DNA of 63,537 bases, filler included, from Folioceros fuciformis (Eukaryota): the NCBI GenBank assembly GCA_049999805.1. It is 13 parts of 13 records of this genome, joined end to end, with 100 filler letters (N's around TTAATTAATTAA, not from the genome) between each part and the next. Parts side by side here need not be neighbours in the genome. Positions count along the whole stretch, not along the records: positions 19,706 to 37,885 come from JBNGIO010003811.1; 12 more parts are not named here. The stretch is one strand, 5' to 3'. A program made the translations under genes and the position numbers. How positions within the stretch are numbered: position 1 is the first letter of the stretch; each line of letters starts with the position of its first letter. Below are positions 19,606 to 54,056 of this stretch, piece by piece. The notes below the pieces were generated by a model. The model was given only the letters and a program-made list of their open reading frames with translations. It made no database searches and was not told where the DNA came from.

Positions 19606-19939
19606 NNNNNNNNNNNNNNNNNNNNNNNNNNNNNNNNNNNNNNNNNNNNTTAATTAATTAANNNNNNNNNNNNNNNNNNNNNNNNNNNNNNNNNNNNNNN
19701 NNNNNCCACAAGTCGATGTTCCCTACGTATGCAGCGTCTGCTAATACTCGGCGTTTCGTANNNNNNNNNNNNNNNNNNNNNNNNNNNNNNNNNNNNNNNN
19801 NNNNNNNNNNNNNNNNNNNNNNNNNNNNNNNNNNNNNNNNNNNNNNNNNNNNNNNNNNNNTTTCAAGCAAGCCCGTGCTTTTAGCGGCTGCCTCTACGGT
19901 GGTTTCCTCTCACGGAGACCAGCCTCATAGGAGCTCGCA

Positions 19940-20127
19940 TCTAGGTGCAGCTCTCTTGTGGCATTGCCGGCTCGCACACCTCAACCCTGCTCGATTGCTT
20001 GCCAACTCCCAACAAGACTTGTACCAGGACAAACTTCCTAAGCTTCCGTCAACAAAGCCTCTTTGCGAAGCTTGTGTCCTTGCTAAACAGCGAAGTTCCC
20101 CTTATCCTACTCTTCCTGCTCATCAGG
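19940..20127 (+). pseudogene. Copia GAG-pre-integrase/integrase Zn-finger fragment
   Basis: LWHCRLAHLN...CEACVLAKQRSSPYP. Confidence 0.8.
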
Positions 20128-22900
20128 AGACGGGCCAGTGGTCAGGTTGTTAGAAAAGGGAGCGGGTTGGTGTCACAGGAGATAGGCCTGGAACGGACTG
20201 AGGCGGAGCAGGTGGTCGTCCGAGAAACAGCAAATCAAGGGTCGGCAGAGCAGGAACTGAACGAAGGGGAACTAGAGGCACCTCAGGAGCAGATGCCAGT
20301 GATGGAAGTGACCCCTCCTGAGGGAAGGAGGGAATTAGGGCACGATCCGAAGCAAGAAGCCTTTCCAGAATGGGAGGATGTTTTTAGGAAGATCCCTCGG
20401 GTGGATAGGTTGCAAGCGGAGGAGCTGGAGAAGATATGAGCACTGATGGGGAGGCAAATAACCAAGAGGGGACTCGCCCCTGTGGAGTCGTAGGAGGTGG
20501 ATCTGCCAGGACTAACCTTTAGCCGTGGTGCGGGCCCAAGCGGACGTGTTGGACTAGGTGGCTAGGGCATTGACCTGGCTAAGCAGGCAGGCGGAGAAGG
20601 AGGCCGAGGCCCGAAGTGGAGACGTAGAGGCAAGAGGAAAGGAATCCGAAGCCTAGAGACGGTTGGCAGAGTCTGAAACGGCAAGGCGGCTTGTGGAAGA
20701 AGAGAGGCGGGTCCTGAGTGAGGGCAAGGCACAAGCATAGGAATAGGCGCACCAAGCCAAGGCAAAGATCTAGGCGCTAATGGAACAACAAGAGTCGCTC
20801 CTAGCTCAGGTGAGGGTAGCCCATGAAACTAATTTGGAAATACAGCAGGAGTTGGCCGAGGCTCAGGAGCAGGAGCGGGAGATGGCTGCGATGGAACAAG
20901 CCCAGAAGTTGGCGGACAGGTACAAACGGGAGCGGGATGAGGCCAGAGAGCTAGTAAAAGGGAAGGGCAAGGCCGGGCGCTGTGGTTGGACGGCGACGCC
21001 GGTAGCTGGAGGGGTTATCGGTAGTCGCGTGTCAGAACCGGTAGCCGGCGGGGCTACCGGTAGTCTCCTGCCACCCGAGGTAGTTGAAGGGGCTACCGGA
21101 AGGGGTGGTGCAACCCCATTAGCCGAAGTCACGACCCCGGTAGCTGGAGCAGCAAGAGCAAGGGCGCCTGTGCCCAGGCGTTCCAGGAGGGCGACTCGCA
21201 CCAGGCGGACAGAGCTAGAGGAAGCAGTAGCAGCCGGAGGAATGGAGGACTCTCAGGTACCCCAGGAGAGCAAGGGTCAGGCAGCCCGAAGTAGCCCAAG
21301 GGAGGAAGGGGTAAGCACTTCCCTTATGACAGGGGGTCAGGTTATGCTGCAGTATGAGGAGGAGGCTTCTTATGTGCCAGGCCTCTATGTGGAGGGAGGC
21401 CGAGTTTTGTCACCATTTTTGTATGTACGTGTGGGCAAAGGAGGGACGTAGGGCTATAGCCTACAACTGAAGACCCGAAGGGGCATCTACTACTACCGTT
21501 GGCGGGTATGGGGACTGCCTCACTTCTATTCTGAGGTAGTCCTGGAGGAACTGACGGAGGAGGAGGCACAGCGGTGGGTTGAATAGGAGCCCGTCTTCAT
21601 CCTCAATAATCAGCAACGTGGGGAGGGGAGGAATTTCCTACAACGAGACCCACCTGCGCTGCCACCAGCAAGGCCTAGCAGTAGCACCAGTGAGGTGGAG
21701 TTCCTGTGGGAAGACCTGCCTGACCAGCGGTGGGGCAGGAGGGCTAGAGGCAGACCAGTAGGGGGAGGAGGGCGACGGCCAGGAGGGAGATGCCAGCGGC
21801 AAAGAGGGAGGGGATAGTAATTACGATCTAGATTAGTTTTTTTTAGATTGTTTTTGCTTGGACCTAAGCCGCTCAACATTCAAGAGCGCTGACTGACGCC
21901 TAACAAACTTTATGGGAGAAAGACCGCCACTACCGTGTATAAGAGGCCAGTTTGAGGCCTCGGGAAAATCAGTAAGAAACCAGCCAGACATTTCGACCTT
22001 GTGGAAGCCTAGCGATGGCCGTTGCTAGACAAGAGGTCCAGGCAAGCAAGCGCACATAGTGTTCTGAGGGTGTGGGTGCAGATGGTGGATGCTCCGTAAT
22101 CGAAAATCGGGAACGAATCAGAAGGGGAGACCTCACCGAGTGGGAGACGAGCTCCCTAGCTATTCCTATGACGGTTGCGTGGGGTGGAAAAGGTACTGGA
22201 GGCCGAATCCGTGAGTTTGGAGTGGAAGGGGATAACCCTTCCCTTAGCCTTCGGTGACCCACCACCTCTTCAAACTTCGGAGAGAAGAGAAGGCCCAAAC
22301 GGGACCCATTGATGAGAGAAGACGAAAGTCGTGAGTGGATTAAAGATTAAGAGTGTGTCGAGGGTTGTGTGTGGGGAAGCCAGCGGGTGGTTTGAGCGGC
22401 CGCCACTGGGAGAGTTGCAGGTGGATGCAGAACGTGGTTGTGGTGATGACTGAAGGAAGAAGTTGTGAAACTGAACGATTGGATTGACTGTGTGTGAGTG
22501 GTAGTGAGTCGAGAGTGTAGCTGAGGAACTGAAAAAGTGGAGTGGTGAGAGTGAGCGCTGCGGGGGGTGTCACCGCGACTGACTAGCGAGTAAATAGAGC
22601 AGGAGGGTGACGAGAACTAGATGTGTTTATGTGCCGTGACGGATTGTTGTGAGGTGAAGAGAAGTTCACCGGTGTCTATGTGACTGAAGCACAGGGACGT
22701 GCGAGCGGATGCGAGAGGTTAGGCCCAGAGGATGCGAGTCGAATGCGGTAGTGGAGGGGAGCGTGCTGACTAAATAAGAACTGGGTAGGTAGGTGAAGGT
22801 TCGTGTCTCCCTCTGTGTGTGTGCGTGTGTGTGCGTGGGCGTGAGCTGGGCGCCTTCGATCTCTGAGAGGGGCAGTAAGTGGATGTGAGCGAATGGAGAG
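20128..22900 (+). mobile_element. Ty3/gypsy (Athila-like) 3' region: degraded Glu-rich/coiled-coil extra ORF followed by LTR-like repeat
   Basis: Stop-interrupted coding-like sequence at 20128-21790 (MEQQESLLAQVR...KGKGKAG). 21790-22900 is shared with 9150-9980 and 40420-40800. Confidence 0.6.
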
Positions 22901-22929
22901 GCGCAATTGCAACAATCATTTCGAAGAGG

Positions 22930-24680
22930 CGCCAATCTACCAGAGTTCGTAGGTGCCCCGCCTATCTGGATGCCTACCATTTCCCAGGAGTTACTCCTCA
23001 GCAGCCCATCATTGCAGAAGTTGCTCCTGATGTTCCTGAAATTGATAACATGCCTGCAGCGACAAGATTGATGCCCTGGATAATCTCATGGCAAGAGCAA
23101 TGCTTGCTGCAACCCACGTGCTTAAGCCTGCAAGCCTAGAGGAAGCTCTCAGATCACCTGATAAGGAAGGATGGATGAAGGCAATCCAACAGGAATATGA
23201 TTCTCTCATTGAATTAAAGACATGGGTGCTCAACCCACTCCCTCCCGGTCGCAAGGCAATTAAATGTAAGTGGACATTCAAACATAAGGTGAAGACTGAC
23301 AGAACCATCGAAAGACTCAAAGCACGGCTCGTGATCAAGGGCTACAGTCAGAGGCCCGGCCTCGACTATGGAGATAACATCTACGCACTTGTGGTGGCCG
23401 CTCAATCTGGTAGATTCCTCCTAGCAATTGCGGCTGAGCACGACCTTGATGTGCATCAACTCGACATTTCAACAGCCTTCCTCTATGCCACACTTAAGGA
23501 CGAAATTTATATGGAGCAACCACCAATGTACGTGGATCCCAAGAGACCTACTTGGGTTTGCAAGCTACTCAAGGGACTATACAGCCTTAAGCAAGCACCA
23601 GCTGAATTTGTTTTGCTAATTGACGGTCACCTTATCCAATTCGGCTTTGTCAAGACCTCAGCAGATCAGAACTTATACTTGCTGCAAAGGGAAGACAAGT
23701 TCTTGGTACTGGCCTTATATGTAGACGACTGCATTCTGTTCACAAATGATCCAAAGAAGATGCTTTTCGATGTGAAGGGAATGCTCGCTACCAGGTTTAA
23801 GATGAGGGACTTAGGACCCTTGGAATACTGTCTCAGAGTACAAATCGGTTGAGACAGAGAGGCAGGCACGCTATCTCTACTCCAGTCAAAGTACGTTCTT
23901 GATATTTTAGATAAGTTCAAGCTCTCATATGCTTGACCTGCTCCAACACCACTTCCAGCAAGAGTCAAGCTCACCTTAGCCGATTGCCCCACAACTGAAG
24001 TAGAAAAGGAGGACATGGCCAAGGTGCCTTATCTTAATACTGTTGGCAGTCTCATCTATTTTCACGGCTGGACACGCTACGACATTCCTATGCTGCATCT
24101 AGTGTAGCCGCAGTTTATGTCTAATCTTGGCAGGGCACACTGGATGTGTGTGAAGCGAATTTACCGTTATCTGAAGGGTACGACTCATCTTGGAATCACC
24201 TACAAGAGGTCAAGTAATGGAGTGCTTAACTTCGAGGGCTGGTCTGATGCCGACTAGGCATCCGACCCCGATGCTCGTTGAAGCGTTGCGGCCTATGTCT
24301 TCACCTTGGGAGGATCAGCTGTATCATGGTCAAGCAAGAAGTTTGCCATGATTTCCACATCAAGCGCTGAAAGTGAATATGGAGCCTTATCCAAGGCTGG
24401 AAAAGAAATTGTAGACTGTAGGCAAATCCTTGAAGACCTCAGCTACCCACAAGCAAATCCTACTGTCCTGCATTGTGATAGCATTGCAGCCATTGCCTTA
24501 ACCAAGGGTGATAGATTCCATGCTATTGCTTATCACTTTGTCAGGTAGCTTGCAGCTAGAGGCACCGTCAAGCTCTTATATGTTCCTACGGAGCTCAATC
24601 TAGCTGATCTCCTCACTAAGTTGCTAGGCAAAGCCAAGCACGAAAGACTCACCTCTGCCTCAGGCCTCGCGAACTTCAGA
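22930..24680 (+). pseudogene. Ty1/copia RT-RNase H, degraded
   Basis: PPGRKAIKCKW, LKARLVIKGY, QLDISTAFL, YVDD, SWSSKK; internal stops. Confidence 0.92.
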
Positions 24681-26389
24681 AGTCCATCCGATCCCATATC
24701 AAGTACGAGGATGGATGCTAGAGCTGAGCGAGAGTAATGAAGTGACAATCCAAGACCATAGCTGAACCGTAACCAACAGCTCTACATCCAAGAGGCATCA
24801 ACCATACACACCAACCTACGCATCTATTCGCATAGCACCCTACACAGACACAAGAACCAACATGAACACTAAATGCTGTAATTAATTCTTAGACCGAATG
24901 AAAACATGAATATATGAATATCTGAAACTTTTCCCATCCTGCTTGCCACTCTTGGCTTTCCTCAACTTGAGGTCTCGGGCCAGAAGGGAGCCTGTAAGTG
25001 AGCCGTCCGTACATGTTTGTATCGTGATATGTATGTACTTTTGGAGTCATGCCCGATTGTCTTTTTCTATGGTTTCTCTTCTCAATACCTACATTCCCTA
25101 CCGCGGCAAGATGTCGGAGATGGACGGCAGGGTTTACCGGACGCGGTGCTTGCTTACCAACGCGGTTCAAATGCAGACATGTTTGTAGGACTTCACAACC
25201 GTATCCCAGTTTTCAATTATTAAGTCTCTCAAATGTAAATATGTACAATGATAACACATGTTACGCTCGATTTCAGCCGAAAGGCCCCGAAAAACCTTCA
25301 CTTTGGCAGGTCAGGTTTCTAACCACCACACAGGTCCAGGCAACCAAGGGTCTCTTCCTCAAACGATATGGGGTAATATGTCCTGCAGGGGTAGCGTCTC
25401 TTCCGAAGCGACGTTTCTTTCATCGTGGTCTTCACTTCCAACGATGCAGCTCAAGGGTAACGGGCGTGCAAAAAAATTGCTTTCAGCGACTGAAATTTGC
25501 TCAGGAGTTTCAAGCTGTGTCTAGGTGCGGTTGTAACATCAGGAGAAGACCCGGTCTTCCAAAGATCACATTGCCAGGCCAGTATTGAAGAATCTAGAAT
25601 AGGTCGAGGATTGAAGGATTACTCCCAAGATTGAGCTGCACCGACATCACCCGTTAGCATATGGGCTATGACTATTTGCCCGCCATCATACTTGGGATGC
25701 AGCTACCTGATGCTGATTCTTTCAGTCCGTAATGTTTGATCTGGTTATTTGCGCGACATCGTACTGTTGACATGTGCAGCAGATTTCTCCACTCACCTAG
25801 CTCATCATGATTAAGCTTCTTAAAGACTTCTGCAGGTCTGGGATGGGTCTACAGCCACAGTGATTCTCTTTGACAAGCTTTCCAAGACTTGCAAGGATAA
25901 CACTCAAGGGAATAAGACTCGGACACAAGAGGTGTCTTCACAAGGTTCGTTTCGCAATGGCTGCAGGGGTGCATTCTCAATCTATTTATTTGCTTTCAAG
26001 GTCGCAGGATGAACCAAACGAAACAAGTTGTATAGTGTCGTAAGGAAAACCCTAAACCAATGTAGTTTCCAGAAATCCAGAGTCTGTTATCTTCTTATTA
26101 TTATTTTCGTCATTGCTGTTGATCCATAGCAAGTTCCCTACCCCATGGTCTGTTGACGTGTCCGTTGATGCTCCAACTCAGAGCTCCTTCTCAAGAACCC
26201 AAGCCGGGCCTGAAAAGGTTGCCTCTCGTCTTGGAAGAGCAAGGTACATATCACCTTCTAATACTGAATCCAACGGGAATTTTCATTGATGCCTTGTGTT
26301 ATCTATGCTTCTCTACAAACTACCTACCTGCACGCGCCCGAATGGTGTGGTCATGCACATCACCTGGGCATTTTGCCAGTCTGTGGTGA

Positions 26390-27760
26390 GATTCGTCTTC
26401 AGACAGCGGTCCCTGAAGGATGTCCACGGTATGCGAACCGGACCTGATGTCCGCCCAACAAACTTTTGGGCACGGGGATTCTGCCAGGATCTTCGGCAAA
26501 TAGATCCTCCGATTGCAGCACTGTAACGAGCCCAGCACGTCCCCTTCTGAGAAATTGTGTGGGTAGGGGCAAGTTACCCAGCGATGCTTGTTGCCACGAG
26601 CAGGAGCAGGAACACGAACGGGACCCTACAATGTGGTGGGACAGAAGACGAGATAAGAGAAGCTCCCCTCCCGTTCGCCTGATTTCCGACGGAAGGGGTC
26701 CGGCGAGGTGCTATGGTTAAACAACATGTTCAAGCCAGCTTGGTTGATGAGCAGCTCCGTTCCTTGGATGTGCAGATGGGCCACGGGGTCTCTCCTTTAT
26801 GAGCCCAGTACGCCGGATGAACCTGAACGTGGGAGGTGTGCAGGGTCGAGAATGAGCGTCGTCACGCCTGGAACCATGAGCATGTTATTTGCATTACACT
26901 GTACTCAAACTGTGTACAGCTAAGAAGGATTTGGTTGTGGGGCGACGAGTTCATGATCTCAGTGCCAAATTCGGGTATGGATGGGCAGAAAGGTGCACAG
27001 TGATGTGGTGCAGAGTCATTCCTACTAACTTGTTTGTTGCCATTGGCACCTGCCTGGTGGACATGTATACAAATGTGGCCAACTGGATGATGCACAAAAG
27101 GTTTTTGACAGCTTAGCCACCAAGAATGTGGTGACATGGACCACCCTGATTGCTGGGTATGCACAGCAAGGGTGCGGGCATGAGGCACTTGCCGTGTATG
27201 GACAAATGGAGCAGGAGGGCCTGGTTTTGGCTAACCATGCTACTTTTGCTTGCCTTCTGGAGGTCTGTGCAAGCCCAAGCGCCTTACAGAAGGGTAGGCA
27301 GCTGCATTCACAGGGTGTCGAAAGAGGACTCCTGCATGATGTAGTGGTGGGCACCTGCCGGGTGGACATGTGTGCAAAATGTGGTGAACTAAAGGATGCA
27401 CGCCAGGTTTTTGACGCCATGGCCACCAAGGATGTGGTGTCATGGACAGTGCTGGTGGCTGGGCATGGACAGACGGAGCAGGAAGATCTGCTTCTGGCTG
27501 ACCATGCTACTTTTGCTTGCCTTCTCGAGGCCTGTGCAAGACTTTTGCCCTACAGATGGGCAGGCGGCTGCACTCACAGATTGTTGAAAGAGGACTGCAG
27601 GATGACGTGGTGGTGAGCTCCTGCCTGGTCGACGTGTACGCAAAATTGGGTGAACTGGAAGATGCACGCCAGGTTTTTGACATGAACAGAAAGAATGTGG
27701 TGACATGGAATGCCCTCATCGTCGGGTACGTACAGCATGGGCTTGGTCGTGTGTCTTCCA
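26390..27760 (+). pseudogene. Truncated, frameshifted paralog of the PPR gene at 34033
   Basis: Nucleotide-level match to 34013-35990 (MWWDRRRDKRSS, VLWLNNMFKPAW, LKLCTAKKDLVVGRRVHDL, NVVTWTTLIAGYAQQG). Deletions and frameshifts; no E/DYW. Confidence 0.88.
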
Positions 27761-28159
27761 CAAGAGCTTGTACATAGCACTTGTACAAAGTGCATGTCAT
27801 GAATTAATCAATACTGTGAAATGGTGGTTCCGCCTTTAGCAGGGCATGCTCCTGGGATGTCTGCGGGGGAAGATGGGCCACGTACTGAGCACAGACCTAC
27901 ACCAGTCAGAATCAGGCTATACTCTTAGTTCGTATCCTGTACGCAAACTAACAATCAAACACTAATGACTACACAAGGTTTAAGACTTGGAATGTTGTGA
28001 CTATCCAGTTCTTGGCCTTTGTGCAGTCGTGGTCTAAGGCTCATCAATGGAACTTCCTAGCATGGTCCTGTCGGCTTAGACACTATACTTCTCACATGCC
28101 ATCGCCATGAATAAATTCCTCAGAATGTCTACCAATATGGCGTCAAGTGCTTAGAATTG

Positions 28160-28300
28160 TCCTGAATTGCCAGGTGACATAATGGAAGAAGTATTGCAGA
28201 GATTGCCGATTACATTGCAAACTCGCTGCCAATCGATCTACAAGGATTGGCAGGCTGTGGTCACAGATTCAGGATTTCTAGGTCGGATCTTTCTCCAAGC
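28160..28300 (+). pseudogene. F-box gene remnant
   Basis: ELPGDIMEEVLQRLPITLQTRCQSIYKDWQAVVTDSGFL resembles the F-box consensus; upstream in-frame stop and no clear continuation. Confidence 0.55.
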
Positions 28301-29191
28301 CTTGGAATCACATACAATGCCACACTTTAGGCTCCACACAGGCAAGCTCCACACAGCCACGCTCCACAGCTGTTGGGAAACCCGGCGCACCCCCGTCGCA
28401 TACTGTCCCGTATTCTTAGCCGCATGGGTAGTGTTCGGCTATAGCCGACGGCATATTTATGTACTTTCAATTCAATCAATGCATGAAAGCGGATCCCAGT
28501 TCGTCCCATCGATGTCGTAGCCAAAGCGCATTGGTACGAATTCACAGCATGCTGCAGATGGGAATACGCCGGGTGGAGCTTTAGGTCTTCCCACGTGAAA
28601 GGAATGGACAGACAAATCACTCCGCATATGTTGTATGTATTACTGTATGCATGGCAGTGTCAGGGGACGAAAAGCCGCTTTATGGATCCGGGGCTGGGAG
28701 GTGAAAGAATTCAATATTATTATATAGTACGACAGAACTGACCGAGCAGGTGTGGGGCGCACCCGACCCGGTTCGGGCTGCCACCAAGTGGGAGGATGAT
28801 GCCGCCTAATAAATGATATAGAAACTGAAATATGTATGTGTGTGGGAGACCAGAGGCGGACAAGGCTGTGGCACGAGTCCACGGGCGCGGAAGCCACACC
28901 GACCCGGGCCTGCCTCATTTGACGCCTTCTGGCAGGGATCTGATTGCTTGCGGCCTACGCGCCGCGTGAGGCGGATCCCGGCTCGACCTCGGGCTCGTTG
29001 GTGTGCAGCACTGTATTTGCTGCGGAGGGGCAGCTGGGACGGCGAATCGCGGGTTGCTGCAACACAGACTGGAGGCGGATTTGCGTGTGGCAGACGGGAT
29101 TGGAGACGTGCATGCCGCGGAGCTGGGCAGACGGGGTCGGAGCGGCGGGTCGCGGAGCAAGCGGGCGGGAGTGAGGGAGGGTTTGGTTGCC

Positions 29192-32100
29192 ATGGATCGT
29201 AATCACATGACGCCGGTGTTGCTTCTGCTGCTGATGGGATGTGTGGCGGTGGCGGAGGCCAGGTTTGTTGTGGAGGAGAACAGCATCACCGTCGCCTCTC
29301 CCGCCTCCGCTGACAAGAAGAGCTACAACAGTGCTATCGGCAACTTCGGCGTGCCGCACTACGGCGGGATCATGCTCGGGAACGTCGTTTACCCTGGGGA
29401 AAATTCCATGGCCTGCGTTCCCTTCTCCACCAGCGTCAAGAACCCCATGCCCGGCGCGCTGCCGACTATTCTGCTCACGGATCGCGGAGGTTGTCGTCTG
29501 GTGTACGCTGTTTGATTTAGTACGCTGGTGTGGCGTGTCTTGTTTTGATCTGATTTGTCGGCGTGGTATCGCGCCGTAGCTCGTGATGGTGGATGTCGTC
29601 GGTCTGCGTGTACGGAATGTGTGTGGAATGTGTGTTTGGATGGAAACTTGTGAGCTTGATGTATTCCGGTCGGAAGTCCGCGCTTGAGCGTTTTGATCAG
29701 GGTTTTTGAGACAGTTATGCCGTCGAGCGACCAGGAGGCTCTGGTCGGTCGTCGGTTATTGTCGGAGAAAGTATCCTGACCAAGTCTGGATCTCGCTTGG
29801 CTGGCGGGTGCAGATTGTTTCTTTGCGAAGAAGGTGTGGAACGCGCAGCAAGCTGGAGCGGCGGCTGTTCTCGTGGCTGATGACAGGCCCGAACTGCTTA
29901 TCACTATGGATCAACCGGATTCGGATGCAGACGCGTACATGTACTTGCTGAATATCAGCATCCCGTCCGCGCTTATTGAGCAGAGCTTTGGGGACCAGCT
30001 CAAGAAGTGGCTGTCTTCCAAAACGGAGATGGTGACCCTGAATCTGGACTGGAGAGAGTCGCTGCCGCATCCCGACAATCGTGTGGAGTACGAGTTGTGG
30101 ACTAACAGTAACGATCAATGTGGGCCGAAGTGTGATAACATTATGGGATTTTTAAAGGATTTCAAAGGTGCTGCGGAGATACTTGAGCAAGGTTCCTATG
30201 TGGAGTTTACCCCTCATTATATAACGTGGTATTGCCCTCAGGCTTACTTGTTTAGCAAGCAGTGCAAGGCCCAGTGCATCAACAATGGCAGATATTGTGC
30301 TCCTGATCCTGAGCAGGACTTCACCATCGGTTACGACGGCAAGGATGTCGTGACAGAGAATTTAAGGCAGCTATGTGTGTTCAAGGTTGGAAAAGAGAAG
30401 CTGCAAAAGCCATGGGTGTGGTGGAATTATGTAACGGATTTCCAGATTAGGTGCCCTATGAAACAGCAGAAGTACAACAGGGCCTGTGCAGAAGAAGTCA
30501 TCAAGTCGCTTGGTCTGTTCCATTTCTCATTCTAGCACCCATAGATGCTTCCCTACTCAATTTGCAGCAGGCAGAAGCACCATGAATAACGTCCTTGGTT
30601 TGACCTTTTACAGGCCTACCGCTGGATGACATCAATCGATGTATGGGTGACCCTGAGGCCAATTTGGACAACGAGGTTTTGCTGAAGGAACAGGATGCAC
30701 AGGTGAAACATTTGGTCTCTTGTTTCGGATGCAGTGTAGAAGGAGTCCATCTTACAGATTGTGTTTCCTCGTGGGACATTTGCCTTTCATTGATGCATCT
30801 CTGTGACACACGTTGATAGGTTGGACAAGGAGATCGTGGAGATGTCACAATACTGCCCACGCTTGTCATCAACCAGAGGCAATACAGAGGTTTGTTGTCT
30901 GTCTGTCTGTGCTTTTGTGCATTATTCTTGCTTTAGGAGCCGCGTATCTGAGTCGAGGTTGACTTCAGGAAAGTTGGAAAGTTCGGCAGTTCTGAAGGCC
31001 ATTTGCTCAGGGTTCCAGGAAGGAACTGAACCCTCAATCTGTTTGAACGGAGGTGCGTTTATTAGTTTCATGGCAAAGTGGACGGTGTTATCGCTCATTG
31101 CAAAGAGTGCTGGATTAATTTTGTATCCTTCGTCAGGCATAGAGACAAATGAATGTCTGACGAATAATGGTGGCTGCTGGCAAAATACAAAGCAGAATAT
31201 TACGGCATGCAAAGTATGACCACTCCACCCCCTACACCTGTAAACAAAGTCTGTGTCATCTCTGGATTTGATCTGATCGCTATACTCGTCTGGAGTGGGC
31301 AGGACACATTCCGTGGTCGAGTTTGTCAGTGTCCTGTGGTTGCTGGCGTTCAATTTCAGGGTGATGGCTACAGCTCGTGCGAACGTAAGTTACAAGACGG
31401 GTTGGTAGAATACCACGGGAAGCAAGCAGTTGTGCTGCTGGTAATGCCTAATGCTGTCTACTAACTGGAGTTTTGTTTCAGCAATTGGCACCGGGCGTTG
31501 CACTATTGAAAATGGTGGTTGTTGGAAAGAGACAAGGGACGTTGTAACCTTTTCTGCTTGTTCGGTGAGTGGACTCTCCCCTTTGGTTTGTGGTGAATGA
31601 GGTCTGCGTAATCTATTCTGCACTGTTGACTCCTGGCTGTGTGTGGCAGGATTTGAAGCTGCAAGGATGCGAATGTCCCAGTGGCTTCAAGGGCGATGGG
31701 GTTAACAGCTGTGTTGGTACGTCCGGACCCTGGCCATAACAATCGCTGTCATTGTCAACCTTGTAATTGTTGCGATTTGACTTGACGTTTCGAGTCATGC
31801 TGTCGTTGGCCGATTGTGACGAGCTGAAAGGGTCCGCGTGTTGCCTGCTTTGGTGCGTCATCAGATATCGACGAGTGTTCAGAGAAAACAGCGTGCACAT
31901 GCTCACAGTGCTCATGCAAGAACACATGGGGTAGCTATGATTGTTCATGCTTAGGGTCTCCCGATCTCCTATATATTCGCGAGCAGGATACCTGCATAAG
32001 TAAGTTGAAGAAGGTCGTTCTTTTGGGTTGTAGGGTTCTTTGTTCTAGTTAGTAGGGTACAGTCCGACGGGTTTCAAATGCCCGTGACCTTCATTGTGGC

Positions 32101-32407
32101 GCTTGTTCCAGGTAAATCAGAACAGGTCTCCAGAGTTGGCTGGCTGGTGACTCTGGTAGTGTTTGGTGCCTTGGCTATTGTTGGTGTGGGTGGCTACGTC
32201 GTCTACAAGTACAGGCTGCGGGTAAGCATTGCGTGTCCATCTGTTTTATAGGCCTGTTGCGTGTGGCGAACCAGCACTAACCGAGGAGAATTCTGGTGTT
32301 CCGTGCAGTCGTACATGGATTCGGAGATTAGGGCAATCATGGCGCAGTATATGCCTTTGGACAGCCAAGGTGATGTACACCAGCATCTAGCTGAGGAGGG
32401 AAGGTAG
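29192..32407 (+). CDS. VSR: Vacuolar sorting receptor (BP-80/VSR), multi-exon
   Basis: Signal peptide plus [23 protein letters not shown] domain, [21 protein letters not shown], three EGF repeats, TM and the [17 protein letters not shown] tail. GT-AG introns (e.g. 29490-29813); stop TAG at 32405-32407. Confidence 0.96.
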
Positions 32408-34032
32408 GAATTAATGTATCGTCAGGCGTACACAGCTGTGTGTAAGTTGTAACTGTCCGTCAAATGCTTTTGACTCCGGCGTCGTTTGAAATCGGGGTTT
32501 TGTCCATGAGGCCAATGACCCAGTGGCTGCACGGGTGTAAAGGTTTTAGGACTTCCAAGCCGCCTCTGCCCAAGTCAGGACTCGGCACCTGCCTTAAGCG
32601 GTCGCTGGCCAGACTCGCGGAGAACTGGTTGTTATTCCGTGATTTGGTAATCGCGGGTGTACCATATCAAGTACAAGTCTGTGTCGAATGAATCGAAGGC
32701 AACGCAACTGCTATCCGGCTCCTCTTTCGTTATGTAGGTCGTCATTATTAAATTACTAATCGCCGTAAGAATTGGCGGGCCTTTCACTTTCTTTCTCTCT
32801 TCTTTTTTGTTTTTTCAATGATTGAATAATGTTATAAATGCGTGTCAGAAATGGTGTAAGTCACACCTGGAAGGGGCCAGCTAAATAATATGTAGGTAGT
32901 ACTGCACGTAGTCAGGCGTAGAACGTTTTGTCCAAGTCCACCATGGAACCCTAAACCCTAACCTCCGCGTTTTTCTTACGTGTCGACGACAGAAAGAGGA
33001 CACTTTTTACAGTACATGGCACACGTGTGCGAACTACAGTATGTATAGGACACCGGTTACTCCAGACCCTGCATGTGCCGAACCATGTCACGTCTACTTC
33101 TCTACCTTCCAGTTCGTCATTGATTGAAATGGGCAATTTTGATTAAAATTGTTAATATATTTGGATTAGTTATAACAAAAAAAAAAAGAAGGCTCAAAAG
33201 TCTGAATCCCACATGATGTGGACTCCATCCTGCTTCAGCCGCTCATTCGTGTTCTCCCACCGGAGGTGTGATGGGCCACATTGTTCCGGCGTGGAATCAA
33301 AGTGGTTGTCACTCTCGTGAACCAGCATCTAGGGATCTTCTTAAAACCAAAAGTGCTCCAAAACTCACATCCGCCTGCAACTAGCCAACAAACTCTGAGT
33401 CTAAACCAGAGCTAAGACTAAGATATTTGCTCGTTCAGGAGCAGCTCCTTTGAAAACCGTGCGTCTTTCTTGATAGCTAGGGAATGCACTGTGTTGCCAA
33501 TCCATTGCCTTTTCTTCGATTTTGTAGGAGAAAGGGCAAGAGTACTTGCATTTCATCTAAAAGGGCTGATGGGGGCTCAGTTCCCAGTCCAAGTCCCTGC
33601 CCACCGTTTGGTGGAAATCGAAGGACTTGACGGCCAAGTCTGGACGTATCGGGAACTGACGAGGTGAGAAGACGAGCTCGTCAGAAGCTCAGGAAATGGG
33701 TTGCAGGTGCCAAGGCTGTATTCTCCGGTGCAGGTCCAGGTTCAGGTCCAGGTTCGGGTTCGGGCTCGGGTACCAATGTCCAGGTGAGGTGCACGAGCCA
33801 AATGCTACCATCTCCAGTTACTATCCAGCCTTGCTATGCTGCAGCAATTTGCCAGTTCCTGAGCACAGCTGAACTGCCTCCTGCTGAACAGGTTTGTAGG
33901 GACTGCCATTCTCGGTCCAGGTCAGGCCACCAACCCTGGCCTGGCCGCAGTGAAGGGTTGATGGGCGTGTAGAGGACTTGTTTGTGAGCGGACTGCTCTG
34001 GTCCGTGCGCCTCAGACAGCGGTCTCTGAACC

Positions 34033-36933
34033 ATGGCCACAGGATGGCGACCGGATCCGGTGTGCACTATACCAATTGGGGACTGGACAGGGATGCTACC
34101 AGGAGCTCCTCCTAACCTCGTTGGTGGAAGTCGACCCCTGGCAAGCAAAGCCTCCAGGTTCAGCAGTGTAAGGGGAAAGTGTGTGGGTAGGGACAAGTTT
34201 TCCAGCAATGGTCCTTGGCAGGAGCAGGAGCAACTGTGGCAATACTTTTTTGTGGACCCGAGCATGTGGTGGGGCAGCAGACCAGATATGAGGAGCTCCC
34301 GCTCGCCTGACTTCCGGCGTAACAGGTCCGGTGAGGTGTTGTGGTTAAACAACATGTTGAAGCCAGCTTCGGTTGATGAGCAGCTCGTTTCCTTGGATAT
34401 GCAGATGGGCCACGGTGCCGCTACTTCCAAGTGGAACTCTCCGGGTAATTTTGAATCTAGAAGGCGCGCGGGTTGGGATGTGGGCTCTCGGTGCAGCAGT
34501 GTAAGCAGCCCAGCGCATGTCCATTCGAGAAAATGTGCAGGTGGGGATGGGATTGTCAACGACGGTCGTCGCCAGGAGGAAGAGCTCTTGTGGCAACAAT
34601 TCTTCATGGACCCGTCAATGTGGTGGGATAACAGACGAGAGAAGAAGAGCTCCCGTTCGCCTGACTTCCGTAGTAGGGGGTACGACAAGGTGCTATGGTT
34701 GAACAACATGTTCAAGCCAGCTTGGGTTGATGAGCAGCTCAGTTTATTGGATATGCAGATGGCCCATGCTGCCTCTCCTTCCGAGTCCAGGGATACGAGG
34801 GGCGTCGTTACTGCTGTCACGGTGAGCATGCTATGTGAGCAGGGGAAGCTTTCTGAGGCCGTTGGAGCCCTGGAATCTCTAGCGCACACAGGCTCTGATG
34901 TTTCTCAGTCTCTGTTTTACACTGTGTTGAAACTGTGTACGGATAAGAAGGATTTGGTCGTTGGCCGTAGAGTTCATGATCTGGCTGCCAAACTTGGTTA
35001 CGAGTCCAGTGCATACTTGGGGAACCATGTCTTGCGAATTTATGCATGCGAAGGCAAGCTAGAGGAGGCTATGGATGTGTTCACCAGGGTGGGCAAACCG
35101 AACGTCCTCATGTGGTTTTCCATAATCTCTGCACATGCTAAGCATGGGAAACCCAAGGAGGCCATACAACTCTACCATGAGATGCGCAGGTCAGGAGTGA
35201 AGGTGAATGGTCACGTTTTTGTAGCTACCCTTCAGGCTTGCGCGCTTGCTGCCGACTTGGAATCCGGCAGAAAAGTGCACCGTCACATCTTGCGCAGTGG
35301 CACTCATATTAACTTGTTTGTTGGAAACTGCCTCGTGGACATGTACGCAAAATGTGGCCAGCTACAAGATGCACGCCAGGTTTTTGAAAGCATGGCCAAG
35401 AAGGATGTGGTGACATGGAATGCTCTGATTGCTGGGTATGCACAGCAAGGACTGAGCCAAGAGGCGTTCGTTGTGTATGGACAAATGGAGCAGAACGGCC
35501 TCATTTTGGCTAACCATGTCACTTTTGCTTGCCTGCTGAAGGCCTGCGCAAGTACTGGCGCCTTACAGAAGGGCAGGCAGCTGCACTTGCAGATTGTTGA
35601 AAGAGGACTGATGGATAACGTAGTGTTGGGCACCTGCTTGGTGGACATGTATGCAAAATGTGGTGAAATGGAAGATGCACGCCAGGTCTTTGACAGCATG
35701 GCTACAAAGGATGTGGTGACATGGAATGCCCTCATTGCAGGGTACACACAGCAAGGACTCGGCCGAGAAGCACTTCTTCTGTATGCACAAATGGAGGAAG
35801 CAGGCCTTATCTCGGCTGACCATGTTACTTTTGCTTGCCTTCTGAAGGCCTGTGGAAGCAGCGGCGCCTTACAGAAGGGCCGGCAGCTGCACTCGCAGTT
35901 GGTCGAAAAGGGACTGCTGGATAACGCAGTAGTAGGCACCTGCCTGGTGGACATGTATGCAAAATGTGGTGAACTGGAAGATGCACGACAGGTCTTTGAC
36001 AGGTTGGTCGCAAAGGATGTGGTGACATGGAACGCCCTGATATCTGGGTACGGTGCTTGTGATGCAGGTCGCAAGGCACTGGCTTGTTTCGAGCAGATGT
36101 TGGTTGCCGGTGTCAAGCCTGATGATGCAACTTTCACTTGCCTTCTAGTGGCATGCAGTCACGAGGGACTGGTCCGTGAGGGTCGCAAACTCTTCGATTC
36201 CATGTCCGAACAGCATGGCATCGAACCAACTCTTGAACATCACAACTGCATGATTGACCTTCTCGGGCGCGCTGGCCACTTAGACGAGGCAGAAATGATG
36301 CTCTTGTCTCGTGAGGGCCGAAGCAATGCTGTGGGCTTGAGGGCTCTGTTGAATGCGTGCAAGATTCACGGAGACATAGAGAGGGCGACTTGGTGTTTCA
36401 AAAGCATTGTGACCTTGGACCCTCGAGACGCGCTGGCATATGTGCTCATGGCCAACGCCTATGCCGATGCAGGTCGGTGGTCCGACGTGGACACGATCGA
36501 AACACGCAGAAGGGTAGCAAAAGCTACCAAGAAACCTGCAGTGGCAACCATTGAGGTGGACAAGGAGGTACACCGATTCCTGGTGGGAGACAGGAGCGAG
36601 GACATCGCGCTGAAGCTCGAGAGCACTAACACACGTGCGAAGCAGGAAGGAGGCCACGTTCCTCACACAAAGTTGGTGTTGAAGCCCTGGTGTGAGCAGG
36701 AGAAGGAAGATGCGCTTTGCGGTCACGCCGAGAAGCTAGCTTTGGCGTTTGGTCTCTTGCACACTCCGAGTGGGACGCCTTTGGGGGTAACGAAGAATCT
36801 ACGCATGTGCAGCGACTGCCACAGTTCTACGGAGATCATGTCAAGGCTTGAACGGAGAGACATTGTGGTGAGGGACGGCTACCGAGTGCACCGATTTGCA
36901 GACGGTTGTTGCAGTTGCAAGCGTCGGCCGTGA
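34033..36933 (+). CDS. PLS-class PPR protein with E1/E2 and DYW:KP-type deaminase-like domain (candidate U-to-C RNA editing factor), with two N-terminal PDF-like motifs
   Basis: Intronless 966-aa ORF with ~14 P/L/S motifs; KKPAVATIEV, GHAEKLA, CSDCH; terminus CCSCKRRP. Confidence 0.93.
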   Translation: MATGWRPDPVCTIPIGDWTGMLPGAPPNLVGGSRPLASKASRFSSVRGKCVGRDKFSSNGPWQEQEQLWQYFFVDPSMWWGSRPDMRSSRSPDFRRNRSGEVLWLNNMLKPASVDEQLVSLDMQMGHGAATSKWNSPGNFESRRRAGWDVGSRCSSVSSPAHVHSRKCAGGDGIVNDGRRQEEELLWQQFFMDPSMWWDNRREKKSSRSPDFRSRGYDKVLWLNNMFKPAWVDEQLSLLDMQMAHAASPSESRDTRGVVTAVTVSMLCEQGKLSEAVGALESLAHTGSDVSQSLFYTVLKLCTDKKDLVVGRRVHDLAAKLGYESSAYLGNHVLRIYACEGKLEEAMDVFTRVGKPNVLMWFSIISAHAKHGKPKEAIQLYHEMRRSGVKVNGHVFVATLQACALAADLESGRKVHRHILRSGTHINLFVGNCLVDMYAKCGQLQDARQVFESMAKKDVVTWNALIAGYAQQGLSQEAFVVYGQMEQNGLILANHVTFACLLKACASTGALQKGRQLHLQIVERGLMDNVVLGTCLVDMYAKCGEMEDARQVFDSMATKDVVTWNALIAGYTQQGLGREALLLYAQMEEAGLISADHVTFACLLKACGSSGALQKGRQLHSQLVEKGLLDNAVVGTCLVDMYAKCGELEDARQVFDRLVAKDVVTWNALISGYGACDAGRKALACFEQMLVAGVKPDDATFTCLLVACSHEGLVREGRKLFDSMSEQHGIEPTLEHHNCMIDLLGRAGHLDEAEMMLLSREGRSNAVGLRALLNACKIHGDIERATWCFKSIVTLDPRDALAYVLMANAYADAGRWSDVDTIETRRRVAKATKKPAVATIEVDKEVHRFLVGDRSEDIALKLESTNTRAKQEGGHVPHTKLVLKPWCEQEKEDALCGHAEKLALAFGLLHTPSGTPLGVTKNLRMCSDCHSSTEIMSRLERRDIVVRDGYRVHRFADGCCSCKRRP

Positions 36934-37985
36934 GAGTACGTAGTGAGGAAGCGTAGGCAGTACACGGAGGGGTGGCTGCCATCGCTGAGGAGTTCGGCAT
37001 GTTCTTTCCTTGTCCGTCTAAACCTAGGGCACGGCTTGCTAGCGCTGATCGTAGTCATCTCTCACCGCACCAGGAAGAAACAGAATCGAGCGGCGTCTGC
37101 CCTGTGTGGACTCGCCTGCGATTCTGCTGAGTCGTGTGAATCATCAGAGTTTGGGGCCCCGCTGCAGAGCTCTGATCTTGCTCTGCAGCGTTGGATCTCG
37201 CACCGCTGCAGAGTTGGATCAGAGCTCTGATTCTTGGCTCCATGCCTTGGAATCGAAGCTGCCTTTGCAGGACTCGTCTTGGAAAACGTGGGCCGGGTCA
37301 TCGCTCTCCAGGTTGATGTGAACTTTGTAGGTACTAAAGTTTGTACGCTACCCGATTCTGCTTCATGTGTTATGTTGAGTCCGACGACGACAAGGCAAAG
37401 GACGAGCTGTTGGAAAGATAGGTAGTACGCATGAGTAAATAAAAGGATAAAGTAAACAAAGATAAAATAATGGGTCGTTACTAATTGGAAGGCCGACGGG
37501 ATTTCTGGTTGTTGAACTTGTGAGACGTGGACGGGACTAAATCGATACGTAGGTTGTCTATTTACGAGCAAGTATTTTTTGGAAATCGTCGGGTGGCACG
37601 CGGGTCTATGTCAGTGGTTAGGACTCCGTCCTCGATCAGGGCGACGGCAGCGACTTAACCGACGTCAGTTTAGAGGGTCGGCCGGCCAAGCCGTGCGTGC
37701 ACTTGACCTTGTCGTGGCTAGCCACGCAAGGAAGTCTAGGCCTGGCACGGTCACGTACAGTACGCCGAGGGCTTTAGGGTTTTTATGTAAATGCTCACGA
37801 CCCGCCGCAGTTGCTGCCGCGTGAAGTGTCTGGCAGGCGTTCCGTTGCGAATGTCTGCTGAGATTCTTGGCGCGGCGCTGGGAAANNNNNNNNNNNNNNN
37901 NNNNNNNNNNNNNNNNNNNNNNNNNNNNNTTAATTAATTAANNNNNNNNNNNNNNNNNNNNNNNNNNNNNNNNNNNNNNNNNNNN

Positions 37986-49992: not shown

Positions 49993-52900
49993 CTACCACA
50001 CGGACGGGGTATGAGCAAGCTGCTCGATAGTTGGAAGGGACTTGTGAAGCAACAATTCCTCTGCATCCCCTCCACTGTTGGGTCGAATTCTGATCTCCTC
50101 TAACATGGGTATTACCTGACGCATATTGGGACGATTCTCGGCCTTAGATTCAGCACAAAGCAAGGCCACTCGGAGGAGGGGAAATAACTTGTCGGTCTCG
50201 TGAAGCGACGACGCACTTTCTAGTAGTATGGTATCGAAAACTTTCAAGCTTCTACCTGCGAAGTACCCACTCGTCCATGCTGGAAGATCCAGCCCATCCA
50301 AGCTAGAATCAGTGGGCCTCTTACCAGTTAGCATCTCCATGACCACAACACCGAAACTGTAAACGTCACCCGCGGTCGTCGTTCTCAAGGAGAAAACATA
50401 CTCTGTGACAGACAGGGTAGCGTTGTATGAGGTCAGGTCAGCCTCTCTGATCCAGGATGACATCAAAGGCAAGACCTGCGAATGCAAGATACATACCCGG
50501 GGCCATGTAGCCAAACGAGCCACGAAATTTCGATGCCATGACAGACGAAACTGAGGTGTTGTCTTCTCCCATGGCACGATATAGGAGTTTGGCGATTCCG
50601 AAGTCTCCGATGTGTGCTACCCTGTCGCTGTCGAGGAGGATATTGGCGGGCTTGAGATCACAGTGGATGACGCCATGGTCGTGCAGGTATAACAGGCCTT
50701 GTGCTACGTCAAGTGCAATGGACAGTCGGTCATCCAAGCCCAGAAAGCTGTCACCCGTGGAGTTCTCAGAGTTCGAAGCGGTACTGGAGCTTTGCCCATC
50801 CCAGGTCGGGCTGGGATGCAGAGCCTGTGCCAAAGACCCCCTTTCCATGTATTCCAACACCATGGATCTCACCTGGCCCGATGCTGAAGTTTGGCTGGCC
50901 AGGAGCTTGATGAGATTGCGGTGCCGCAGCTGACCTAGCAGCTTCAGTTCCATCACAAAGCTGCGTTGCATCTCCTCCTCTTTGTCAGTCAGCAGGGGCC
51001 CCGACATTCTCTCGTCTTGTTTGAAATCGTCTCCTTTCATCTTCTTCACAGCTATCTGTCGCCCATCGGCTAAAGTGCCCTTGTACACGATGCTGACGGA
51101 GCCGACGCCTATGACCTTTGCATCTGAGAATCCCTCTGTTGCAGCCCATAAATCAGACACACTACTGAGGGCAAGCTGCGTGTCGAAAAGTAAAATCTCA
51201 TCCTCATCTTCCAACGCCTGTCCTCTCGAGGAGAGGCTACAGCGACACCAACAAAAAACAACATAACTACAGCAAAGAACGAAGAAACCTGCTCCAGCGC
51301 CTACCGAGAGAACAACTATCATCCAAATCCTTAAACCTCGTCTCCTTGAGCACGACCTATGCAACACCTCACCACAGAGTCCAGGGTTGTCCAAATATGA
51401 GGAATCGGTCAGATTCAAAAACATCCCCGTTGTAGGAACCGGGCCCGAGAGCTGATTTACAGACAAGTTGAGGAAGGTAAGCTGCACAAGCTTCGCCAAA
51501 GATTCCGGGATTTCCCCAGAGAGGTGGTTATATGACAGGTCTAGTGAGGTTAGAGTTTCAAGGTTGCCCAGCTCCTGGGGTATGCTCCCATTCAAAGAAT
51601 TGACTGAGAAATCTATTACCATCACACTGGCAAGCCATCGGTCAGGCTTTTCACCAAGGCTAGCAGGAATTGCCCCATCTAGTTTGTTGTTAGACAGATC
51701 TAACGTCTGAAGTGCTGTGCATCCACTCAGGCTCTGGGGAATCCCTCCAGACAGTTGGTTGTACGACAAATCTATTATCTGGACTAAAGTCAGCGATCCA
51801 AATTGCGGAGGCAGTGCACCTGACAACGAGTTATGAGAGAGGTTTAAGAGGGTCTGCTTACTAAATGCAGCGATTGGCCAAGGAATACCTCCTGATAGCT
51901 GGTTGGAAGAGAGGTCTAGCTCTTGAAGGTTTGAGCAGCTTCCAAGTTCGTCTGGAATGACATCGGTCAGCTGATTATCTCGTAAAGACAACTGAAAGAG
52001 AGTCATGTTCAGCAGACCGATCCAGGATGGGATGGCTCCAGTGAACGCATTGCTGCTTAGGTCCAGTTCACCCAGTTCCCTGCAATTTGAGAGGTCTGGG
52101 ATGGGCCCCTCCAGTTGATTGTTTCCAAGCCTCAAGCGCTGCAAGACCAAACAGTAGTTCAGAGAAGTGGACAATCCAACCATAACAAAAACTCCTAGTA
52201 GTCGGGCGATGGAATGACGAACTGATCACCTGAAGTTGAGTGAGGCTCCCAAAAATGCTAGGAAGACTCCCATTGAGGTTGTTCCTACTAAGATCAAGAA
52301 TGCCAAGATTGACGAGATTGCCAAGTTGGGGTGGCACACCACCTGTCAACCTATTTCCCGTGAGGCTCAGAATCTGCAGACTCCCACTAAGTCCCAAGCT
52401 AGTTGGAATTTCTCCAGTAAAGCCGTTGTTCCCTGCATATATGGATATGATGTTAGGCCACCACTTTCCGACGTCATTTGGGATTCTGTCCCCCAGCTGG
52501 TTATCGGTCAAGTATAGGTATTGCAGCATAGAATTGCCAGACAGATTCGGGAAAGGACCATAGAAGTTACAATTGAACAAGCTGAGCGCGGTTAGGTTCT
52601 CTAGCTCTCCCAACCAACTTGGAATGGGCCCCGACAAACCTGGATTTGAATTCACTGAGAATTCGGCTAGACCGGTACAGTTTCTGATGGACTCAGGAAT
52701 GATGCCAGTGAAACTGTTCTCGTGCAAAAACAAAGTTGTCAGACGGAGCAAAGAGTTGCCTAACTCTGGGGGAATAGTCCCTTGCAGCTGGTTCCTTGCA
52801 AGAAGTAGGGTCTCCAAGCTCGTACAGTCGAACAATGATAGAGGGATGTCTCCGGTCAGACGGTTTCCATTCAGACCGAGATAATTAAGGTTGGTCAAAG

Positions 52901-54056
52901 ACCCGAGCCCGGATGGAACTCCTCCTGTCAGCTGATTACTCGATAAAATGAGCGTCTGCAGATTCGGTGTAGACCATACCTCAGGTATGAATCCTGACAA
53001 TGAGTTGTTAGAGAGGTCCAAATAGTACAAGGCTGTGAGATTGGCTGCAACAGGAAGGATGATGCCAGTTAATTGATTATGGTTCAAAAGCAAATACTGC
53101 AGTTGAGAGAGATACGCTAGCTCTGCGGGGATAGAGCCAGTCAACCTATTGCCTGAAAGTAGAAGGGACCTGAGAGAAGTGCAATTGCCGAGATACGGAG
53201 GGATTGCACCAGTGAGCATATTGTCTTGCAGCTCCAAATTCACGAGGTTGGAACAGGTGCCATCAGGGTAGGGTACAGGACCTGAAAGAAGGTTGGAGAA
53301 CAAGGTGAGATCCACCAGGCCGTAAAAAAGCGTTCCTATTGCGGGAGGAATACTTCCTGAGAGGTCATTGTTGGATAGATATAATTGAGTGAGATTGCGC
53401 AGCTGTCCGAGAGAAGCCGGAATCTCGTCAGTAAGGCTGTTGACTGCCAAAGACACATAGGCTAGTTCCCGGCACTCGGACAAGGAATCCGGAATGGATC
53501 CCGCAAAGTTGTTGTACGAGAGGTCCAGGTGCTGCAGCGTAGAAAGCCAGCCGAGAGACTGTGGCAAGCGGCCGGTGAGGTTATTGATGCTCATATCCAG
53601 CGAGGTCAAGGTTGAGAGATTGCCGACGGCGGATGAGAGGAAGCCCCCGAGATGATGCCCTGAAAGATTAAGCTGACGCACACGGTACGACTGGTCGCAA
53701 ATAACGCCTGCCCAGCTACAAGCATGGAGCCCCGGGCTCCCCCAGTTGGCCAGCACTCTATCCGGGTCATCCGTGATGTTACCCGAAAGCTGGAGCAGAA
53801 ATTGGGCGTCAGGCCCTGGTACTTCCGGGCCTTCTACCAATAGCCAACGCTCCGAGAGTGAGGAAGTGCGAGCGCCATCACCACCGGACTCTTGAGGACA
53901 CAAGGTGCAGTTGATGGGCTCCCGTGTCGCTACCTGGAAGTGGGGAGTGAGCAGCAGAGGGGAGGAAAATCCCAGCCCCAAAGGCAGGAGCAGCGTGCAG
54001 GCCAAGGTGAAGGCGCAGAAGTCACAAGGACTCGGCAGGCCTGCCCCAGCTGCCAT
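49993..54056 (-). CDS. LRR receptor-like kinase, non-RD (LRR-XII/FLS2-like); start uncertain
   Basis: Signal peptide, CSWAGVIC cap, long plant LRR array, TM and kinase (AVKK, HCDLKPANILL, DFG, GYMAPEY). Introns at 52229-52139 and 50496-50403 restore one reading frame. Confidence 0.92.

Follow-up and report, generated by a model that had tools for sequence, protein, structure and literature searches.

The window analysed here is a stretch of 63,537 nucleotides from Folioceros fuciformis (assembly GCA_049999805.1), composed of 13 parts joined end to end with 100 filler letters between neighbouring parts. [quoted passage not shown] With confidence just above even, we hold that this locus is a real, intact and intronless nuclear gene and that its product is an organelle-targeted PLS-class PPR factor of the DYW:KP (candidate U-to-C) type, for whose two OSB-homologous PDF motifs we propose an accessory role in nucleic-acid binding.

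P0001 is a single uninterrupted open reading frame (ORF) of 966 codons that begins at the first ATG downstream of an in-frame stop. The domain order is basic leader, two PDF units, PLS-type PPR array, E motifs and DYW:KP deaminase, and both PDF units lie 5' of the PPR array and in frame with it, with no stop codon between. The leader (aa 1-62, 34033..34218) has a net charge of +5 and an isoelectric point of 10.3 and is a putative organelle transit peptide. It is followed by the partly diverged PDF unit 1 (aa 63-122, 34219..34398), a basic linker (aa 123-180, 34399..34572; net charge +5, isoelectric point 10.7) and PDF unit 2 (aa 181-240, 34573..34752), which has the full family signature. Each unit is rich in aromatic residues and has, by composition, a net charge of -2. 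The PPR array and E motifs occupy aa 259-833 (34807..36531), and the deaminase domain of 133 residues (aa 834-966) with the stop codon extends over 36532..36933, all of these on the plus strand. The sequence-only reading of this DNA had quoted the peptides of two tandem units at 34234-34755, and both peptides and coordinates were found as given, with LWQYFF opening unit 1 at 34234 and ...SLLD closing unit 2 at 34752. In a Pfam scan, the protein matched PPR (3e-72, 10 stretches), PPR_2 (1.5e-70), E_motif (8.5e-12, aa 779-841) and DYW_deaminase (6.2e-32, aa 874-963). The first 266 residues gave no Pfam match even at E≤1, and the N-terminus had no match in NCBIfam. In-frame Met codons occur at aa 78, 86, 108, 123, 125, 192, 196, 226, 241, 243 and 266.

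The relationship of the two units to other proteins was determined with a profile of 66 columns (A1) made from the window units, which was compared by HMMER with 1.84 billion representative proteins. This yielded 544 matches at E≤1e-3, of which 117 also passed E≤1e-10 and 14 passed E≤1e-30. Proteins already named as OSB were among them, namely P0028 of Populus nigra ('protein OSB1, mitochondrial-like', 1.2e-22) and P0031 of Euphorbia peplus ('organellar single-stranded DNA binding protein 3', 1.1e-21). Pairwise BLASTP of the P0001 N-terminus against P0028 and P0031 gave E values of 5e-23 and 4e-23, respectively, with both window units aligning to both PDF units in each of these proteins. A profile-profile comparison by hhalign of the window units with 106 OB-linked units returned a probability of 99.5% (E 1.7e-22). 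Against a general PDF hidden Markov model (HMM) of 236 units taken from the A1 matches, unit 1 scored 68.3 bits and unit 2 scored 78.8 bits.

The PDF motif is described as a segment of ~50 aa with a conserved Pro-Asp-Phe signature (PMC6963530; here and below, cited papers are represented by excerpts of their text). SPDF is present in both window units, in register with the family alignment of this motif. In an alignment of 32 rows, W7, F11, P14, W17, W18, D19, R21, K24, P30, D31, F32, L41, W42, P49 and W51 were invariant or nearly so. When a signature of 15 residues (W7 P14 W17 D19 R21 K24 P30 D31 F32 L41 W42 P49 W51 V52 L56) was scored, unit 2 kept all 15 (16/16 in an alternative scoring) and unit 1 kept 12 (13/16), the changes being D19G, K24M and W51S. 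Based on the matches to named OSB proteins, the BLASTP and hhalign alignments and the conservation of the signature, we accept the window units as bona fide homologues of OSB PDF motifs. The sequence-only reading had recognized them as such by their pattern, and the HMM- and HHpred-style comparison with OSB PDF motifs that it called for thus produced significant profile and profile-profile matches. Word-indexed protein searches with the P0001 N-terminus alone and with region 55-250 found no match, which reflects a limit of sensitivity and not absence, since the HMMER profile search found 544. The ESM Atlas contained no usable match, and profile A1 had no match at E≤10 among PDB entries searched by sequence. 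A second alignment, A2, retrieved only PPR structures from the PDB, matched via the PPR tails of some of its rows, and no relative of the PDF motif.

The best 150 of the 544 A1 matches were classed by local searches: 66 had an SSB-like OB domain, 19 had PPR repeats and 65 had neither. In 65 of the 66 OB-bearing matches the OB domain precedes the PDF units, which is the OSB layout, and Pfam SSB (PF00436) was detected at E≤0.01 in 9 of 10 OSB-like matches scanned, in 5 of them above the gathering score. The matches with neither domain are PDF-only arrays or fragments and share no recurrent Pfam family. P0001 gave no Pfam SSB match at E≤1, and the OB profile was found in none of the 19 PDF+PPR matches, compared to 66 positive ones among the others. 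Because it has no OB fold, P0001 falls outside the OSB family; it is not an OSB protein and shares the PDF module alone with that family. Of the 'OSB module' said in the sequence-only reading to be fused to an editor, the PDF motifs stand, whereas the OB fold is missing by both Pfam and the OB profile.

Aligned together with their flanks, the two units of P0001 show 61% identity over 80 aa (E 2e-33 in BLASTP). At the DNA level, the pair forms a direct repeat of 258 nt with 76% identity and a period of 354 nt, from which we deduce a duplicated block of ~118 aa that comprised a basic linker and a PDF unit; the 3' part of the present linker lies within this block. Nonsynonymous and synonymous divergence between the units were estimated at dN ~0.24 and dS ~0.59 (dN/dS ~0.40), which indicates that the duplication is old and that the copies have been under moderate purifying selection. 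Among well-scoring units, ≥87% of the signature was kept in 20 of 22 PPR-linked units vs 95 of 106 OSB-linked ones; judged by this measure, the PPR-linked units keep the signature as well as the OSB-linked units do. In trees of 84-87 units, window units 1 and 2 were mutual nearest neighbours, followed by the PPR-linked units of P0003, P0081 and P0118. The PPR label required 7 changes on these trees vs 11.4 in shuffles, with none of 500 shuffles as low. A single clade of 14 PPR-linked units was not rejected (approximately unbiased test, p 0.549), a result which neither proves nor rejects a single fusion event, and the trees were poorly resolved (4 starred branches of 80-83).

The C-terminus was compared with published descriptions of DYW:KP domains, in which KP replaces the PG box and HAE replaces HSE, the C-terminal triplet is not DYW and xHP is mostly missing (PMC9478123). 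Hornwort domains of this type end in DRH or GRP (PMC9478123, PMC11845758), and Lys88 is conserved in the domain of 132-133 aa (PMC11845758). P0001 has the KP box KKPAVATIEV with no HP following it, the active-site motifs GHAEKLA (HAE) and CSDCH, and K921, which is position 88 within the last 133 aa. The protein ends in ...KRRP, with RRP near but not identical to the hornwort GRP variant. The KP box, HAE...CSDCH, K88, RRP and the missing HP all agree with the DYW:KP identity that had been assigned to this C-terminus beforehand, and we classify P0001 as a PPR-DYW:KP protein and candidate U-to-C editor.

The 19 matches with an N-terminal PDF followed by PPR repeats show that P0001 is not alone in this architecture. 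Pfam confirmed PPR in 16 of them, the E motif in 5 and DYW in 3, and the PDF units preceded the PPR array in every PDF+PPR match classed. In PDF+PPR proteins other than P0001 the units start 5-90 aa from the N-terminus. Most PDF+PPR proteins carry one unit; two are found in P0001 and P0047 and three in P0003. The named species are Diphasiastrum complanatum, Sphagnum compactum, Adiantum capillus-veneris, Ceratopteris richardii and Selaginella moellendorffii, representing one moss, two lycophyte and two fern genera. The number 19 of 150 is a lower bound, because some of the short proteins classed as having neither domain end in apparent starts of PPR arrays. The short PDF proteins P0063, P0096, P0125 and P0135, which are part of alignment A2, run on into '...PGT(V/I)Q...SWN...YVK.GQ'; this junction also occurs in full-length Diphasiastrum and Sphagnum PDF+PPR proteins, and the four are probably fragments of such fusions.

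In a second search, which was word-indexed and limited to proteins of 526-1675 aa, the PDF unit of P0147 from Diphasiastrum served as query and gave 34 matches, all with Pfam PPR and 19 with DYW_deaminase. Twenty of these came from five or more Sphagnum species, 9 from Diphasiastrum and 5 from unnamed sources. HxE...CxxCH was readable in 13 of the other 33 matches, and all 13 had HSE and a YW end (DYW:PG), none HAE. The PDF+PPR proteins seen here from ferns and Selaginella end after the E motifs and have no DYW domain. The KP type was seen only in P0001 and in an unnamed protein, P0081, among the PDF+PPR proteins examined. P0081 has 753 aa, a single PDF unit that keeps 12/15 signature residues, a KP box, HAE and a GRP end. 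PDF unit, PPR array and DYW domain all align collinearly between P0081 and P0001 (595 aa at 54% identity; a second high-scoring segment pair with 47% over 521 aa includes the PDF unit). C-termini in this class are thus DYW:KP, DYW:PG or without a DYW domain. The fusion had been presented in the sequence-only reading as one onto a U-to-C editor, and in this respect it has to be revised, as the same N-terminal PDF is found on DYW:PG and DYW-less PPR proteins of five genera. The count of PDF+PPR fusions suggested there for other proteomes did return lycophyte and fern proteins, and moss proteins as well (19/150 in the first search, 34/34 in the second). Since it occurs on DYW:PG and DYW-less proteins across moss, lycophytes and ferns, the N-terminal PDF is best described as an old and widespread accessory of PLS-type PPR proteins.

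Relatives of P0001 were also identified within the window. A truncated and frameshifted paralogue, a pseudogene, was located by tblastn and six-frame HMM searches at 26448..27750 on the plus strand (frames 2 -> 1 -> 3), ~7.5 kb upstream of the P0001 gene and with 73-84% nucleotide identity to it. Its one PDF unit is broken by a frameshift near 26666 and leads into PPR repeats (Pfam PPR on 27029-27616); E and DYW regions are missing. On the minus strand, at 55232-58807, lies a third PPR gene, which is of PLS-E type, has the start of a PG box followed by truncation, and changes frame twice (-1, -3, -1). Its N-terminus aligns collinearly with aa 195-370 of P0001 and contains an apparent decayed PDF remnant (S.RWDNR ... 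LRWLN ... AWVD), which is not significant against the PDF HMM. In a DNA run of the same organism label, the summed contig depth at 34285-34401 and 34636-34752 (the C-terminal halves of the two PDF units) and at 35338-36039 (PPR repeats) exceeded that of the unique flanks by factors of tens to hundreds; summed contig depth is not copy number, and this excess suggests many similar paralogues in the genome.

Compared with known systems, P0001 combines features that have been described separately. It shares with OSB proteins the same motif of ~50-60 aa, W..F..P..WWDNR..K....PDF......LW.....P.WV, which can be present singly or as several tandem copies. In OSB proteins an SSB-like OB fold lies at the N-terminus and the PDF motifs at the C-terminus, whereas P0001 has no OB fold and its PDF units are N-terminal to the PPR array and deaminase. 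With the PPR-DYW:KP proteins, which include candidate and engineered U-to-C editors and the hornwort GRP/DRH variants, it shares the PLS array, E motifs and a DYW domain of 133 aa with KP box, HAE, CxxCH and Lys88, and its RRP end resembles their GRP (PMC9478123, PMC11845758). The excerpted descriptions of PPR-DYW:KP proteins mention no N-terminal PDF or single-stranded DNA (ssDNA)-binding motif, and the designer KP proteins described there lack one. Maize PPR4 with its N-terminal RRM, PPR-SMR and PPR-NYN proteins likewise join a PPR array to an extra nucleic-acid-related domain (PMC9459714), and RRM-PPR fusions are counted in PMC13386178. However, those proteins are mostly P-class and their accessory domains are Pfam families, whereas PDF has no Pfam model and occurs on PLS-class, editing-type proteins. 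Whirly proteins bind ssDNA in plant organelles as OSB proteins do, but are unrelated to PDF in fold and sequence and are not joined to a PPR array. For maize WHY1, binding to both RNA and DNA and co-purification with a splicing factor are described (PMC2532728), a precedent for one module that serves nucleoid DNA as well as RNA processing.

The PDF units of P0001 most likely serve as an accessory module for binding single-stranded nucleic acid. A PPR array and its RNA run in parallel: the N-terminal repeats contact the 5' nucleotides, and the DYW domain is placed at the base that is edited. As the units are N-terminal to the array, they would be placed on the 5' side of the RNA element that it recognizes. 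These aromatic-rich units could act as sequence-independent binders of single-stranded nucleic acid, and might either keep the flanking RNA single-stranded or grip ssDNA exposed in the nucleoid. Either contact would raise the local concentration or the dwell time of the editor on nascent transcripts, while catalysis and site choice would stay with the DYW:KP domain and the PPR code. In OSB1, the PDF motif is reported to be sufficient or responsible for ssDNA binding (PMC6963530, PMC4166229, PMC6451138), and OSB1 is reported to limit mitochondrial R-loops (PMC8330923). Binding by the units of P0001, their position relative to the RNA and a benefit for editing may each apply, and we infer all three. 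The functions put forward in the sequence-only reading, namely tethering to nucleoids or R-loops, additional nucleic-acid affinity and oligomerization, are likewise hypothetical.

Several points weigh against this role. No binding, localization or editing data on any PDF+PPR protein were found in the literature. Recombinant OSB1 and OSB2 favour ssDNA over double-stranded DNA or RNA (PMC4166229), and RNA binding by PDF units is not established for that reason. Synthetic DYW:KP editors without PDF are active in bacteria and human cells (PMC9478123), which argues that the units are dispensable for catalysis. Three signature residues are lost from unit 1, and P0081, the closest relative, has just one unit, likewise at 12/15; the units of P0001 are not basic. 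The decayed remnant in the PPR gene at 55232-58807 and the pseudogene among the paralogues hint at relaxed constraint in this lineage. Transcription of the N-terminal part and its retention in the mature protein are assumptions that may hold.

These observations bear on an unlikely alternative, in which the units are a decaying relic in this lineage, translated but dispensable, removed with a long presequence or skipped by a downstream start, so that the mature editor is an ordinary PPR-DYW:KP protein. The substitutions in unit 1 and in P0081, the insignificant remnant at 55232-58807 and the in-frame Met codons from aa 78 through 266 would all fit such a history. However, all 15 signature residues are intact in unit 2, the two units show a dN/dS of 0.4 even at a dS of ~0.59, no stop interrupts the 266 codons that precede the PPR array, and the PDF-then-PPR layout has been kept in annotated proteins from five named genera. 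The units could also act as protein-protein modules for oligomerization or for docking on OSB or other nucleoid proteins, in which case tethering to the nucleoid would be indirect. OSB2 and OSB3 are reported to be tetrameric in solution (PMC6451138), the window units are slightly acidic (net -2) for all their aromatic residues, and the number of units on PPR proteins varies between mostly one, two (P0001, P0047) and three (P0003). Against this, ssDNA binding is ascribed to the PDF motif itself (PMC6963530, PMC4166229, PMC6451138), and the excerpts of these reviews do not state which part of OSB forms the tetramer. OSB-linked and PPR-linked units share their signature residues, and this speaks for one and the same biochemical activity; we regard a purely protein-binding function as unlikely, somewhat more so than the relic.

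It is extremely improbable that the architecture is an artefact, produced by an assembly join or by a chance open frame that merged an OSB-like fragment with a PPR gene. The window does contain repeats and 37 N runs, of which many follow a regular pattern of 44+44 or 100 bases, and the antisense strand is likewise open at 33834-34889. However, no N run falls within 19860-37886, and a DNA run includes contigs that agree without differences with the region of the ATG and with parts of the P0001 gene. The pseudogene 7.5 kb upstream has the same PDF-then-PPR order, which also recurs in independent proteomes, and the antisense ORF has no Pfam match. Another contig, 33889-34158, spans the ATG and comes from a run only guessed to be RNA; it is not a sign of transcription. 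Four sequencing runs were compared, all of them as contigs, and stretches that lack long contigs carry no weight either way.

A full-text literature search found no paper that links the PDF motif or OSB with PPR proteins, supplements and some key papers being outside its reach. This is in line with the sequence-only reading, which knew of no functional characterization of the architecture. Nothing useful was found in the literature on co-transcriptional editing at nucleoids. A 2026 paper on OSB evolution (PMC13393729) has no occurrence of 'PPR' or 'pentatricopeptide', and a 2026 survey of domain fusions in editing factors (PMC13386178) has none of 'osb'; the fusions listed in the excerpted text of the latter are with PPR, MORF, RRM and Znf only. 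The accessory domains given in the excerpt of an overview of Physcomitrium PPR proteins (PMC9459714) are RRM, SMR, NYN and LAGLIDADG. Because PDF has no Pfam model, standard domain annotation is blind to PDF+PPR fusions. We are thus apparently dealing with a known motif on a known class of proteins, in an architecture that is common in public non-seed plant proteomes and yet undescribed.

With this finding, the PDF motif is known outside OSB proteins as well. A DNA-binding motif of genome maintenance on many natural editors would provide a deletable handle on site finding in vivo and on the coupling of editing to transcription on the nucleoid. The P0001 gene is one of few natural DYW:KP candidates for U-to-C editing, and editors of the DYW:KP type are being engineered as RNA base editors. 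Tentatively, and with clearly less confidence than in the assignment of P0001 itself, the N-terminal PDF might define, among non-seed land plants, an ancient class of PLS-PPR editing factors that has been overlooked and is physically coupled to nucleoid ssDNA such as transcription bubbles, R-loops or replication intermediates. C-to-U and U-to-C editing would then be co-transcriptional on the nucleoid, with the PDF module lent by, or donated to, the OSB proteins of genome maintenance.

Other features of the window include an exon of a vacuolar sorting receptor at 29780-30535 on the plus strand (Pfam VSR_TRX and PA) and, by Pfam, an LRR receptor kinase at 50438-54206 on the minus strand. Copia-type retroelement-like ORFs were seen at 12101-15963 (minus strand) and 23049-23852 (plus strand), with integrase and reverse transcriptase recognized by the look of their translations; 12101-12958 had no Pfam match. 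The antisense ORF at 33834-34889 was rejected as a gene, as it belongs to no Pfam family.

Several other PDF proteins were noted among the matches. OSB papers mention, in the excerpts, one to five PDF units, and P0002, P0004, P0005, P0010 and P0016 have tandem arrays of 7-13, some of which may be artefacts of gene models. A protein of Kingdonia uniflora has 11-13 PDF units and an SSB domain. P0111 (185 aa, from an ENA assembly) and P0121 (186 aa, from Logan) have a well-conserved C-terminal PDF after an Ala/Pro/Gln-rich N-terminal part without a plant-like look, and relatives of P0111 were found neither in viral contigs nor in contigs of prokaryote genomes. PDF units were also present in P0091 of Coptis chinensis (1526 aa), which is named a kinesin-motor protein, and, together with an SSB domain, in P0039 of Striga hermonthica (1063 aa), which is named 'Interactor of constitutive active ROPs 2'; both may be other fusions or merged gene models.

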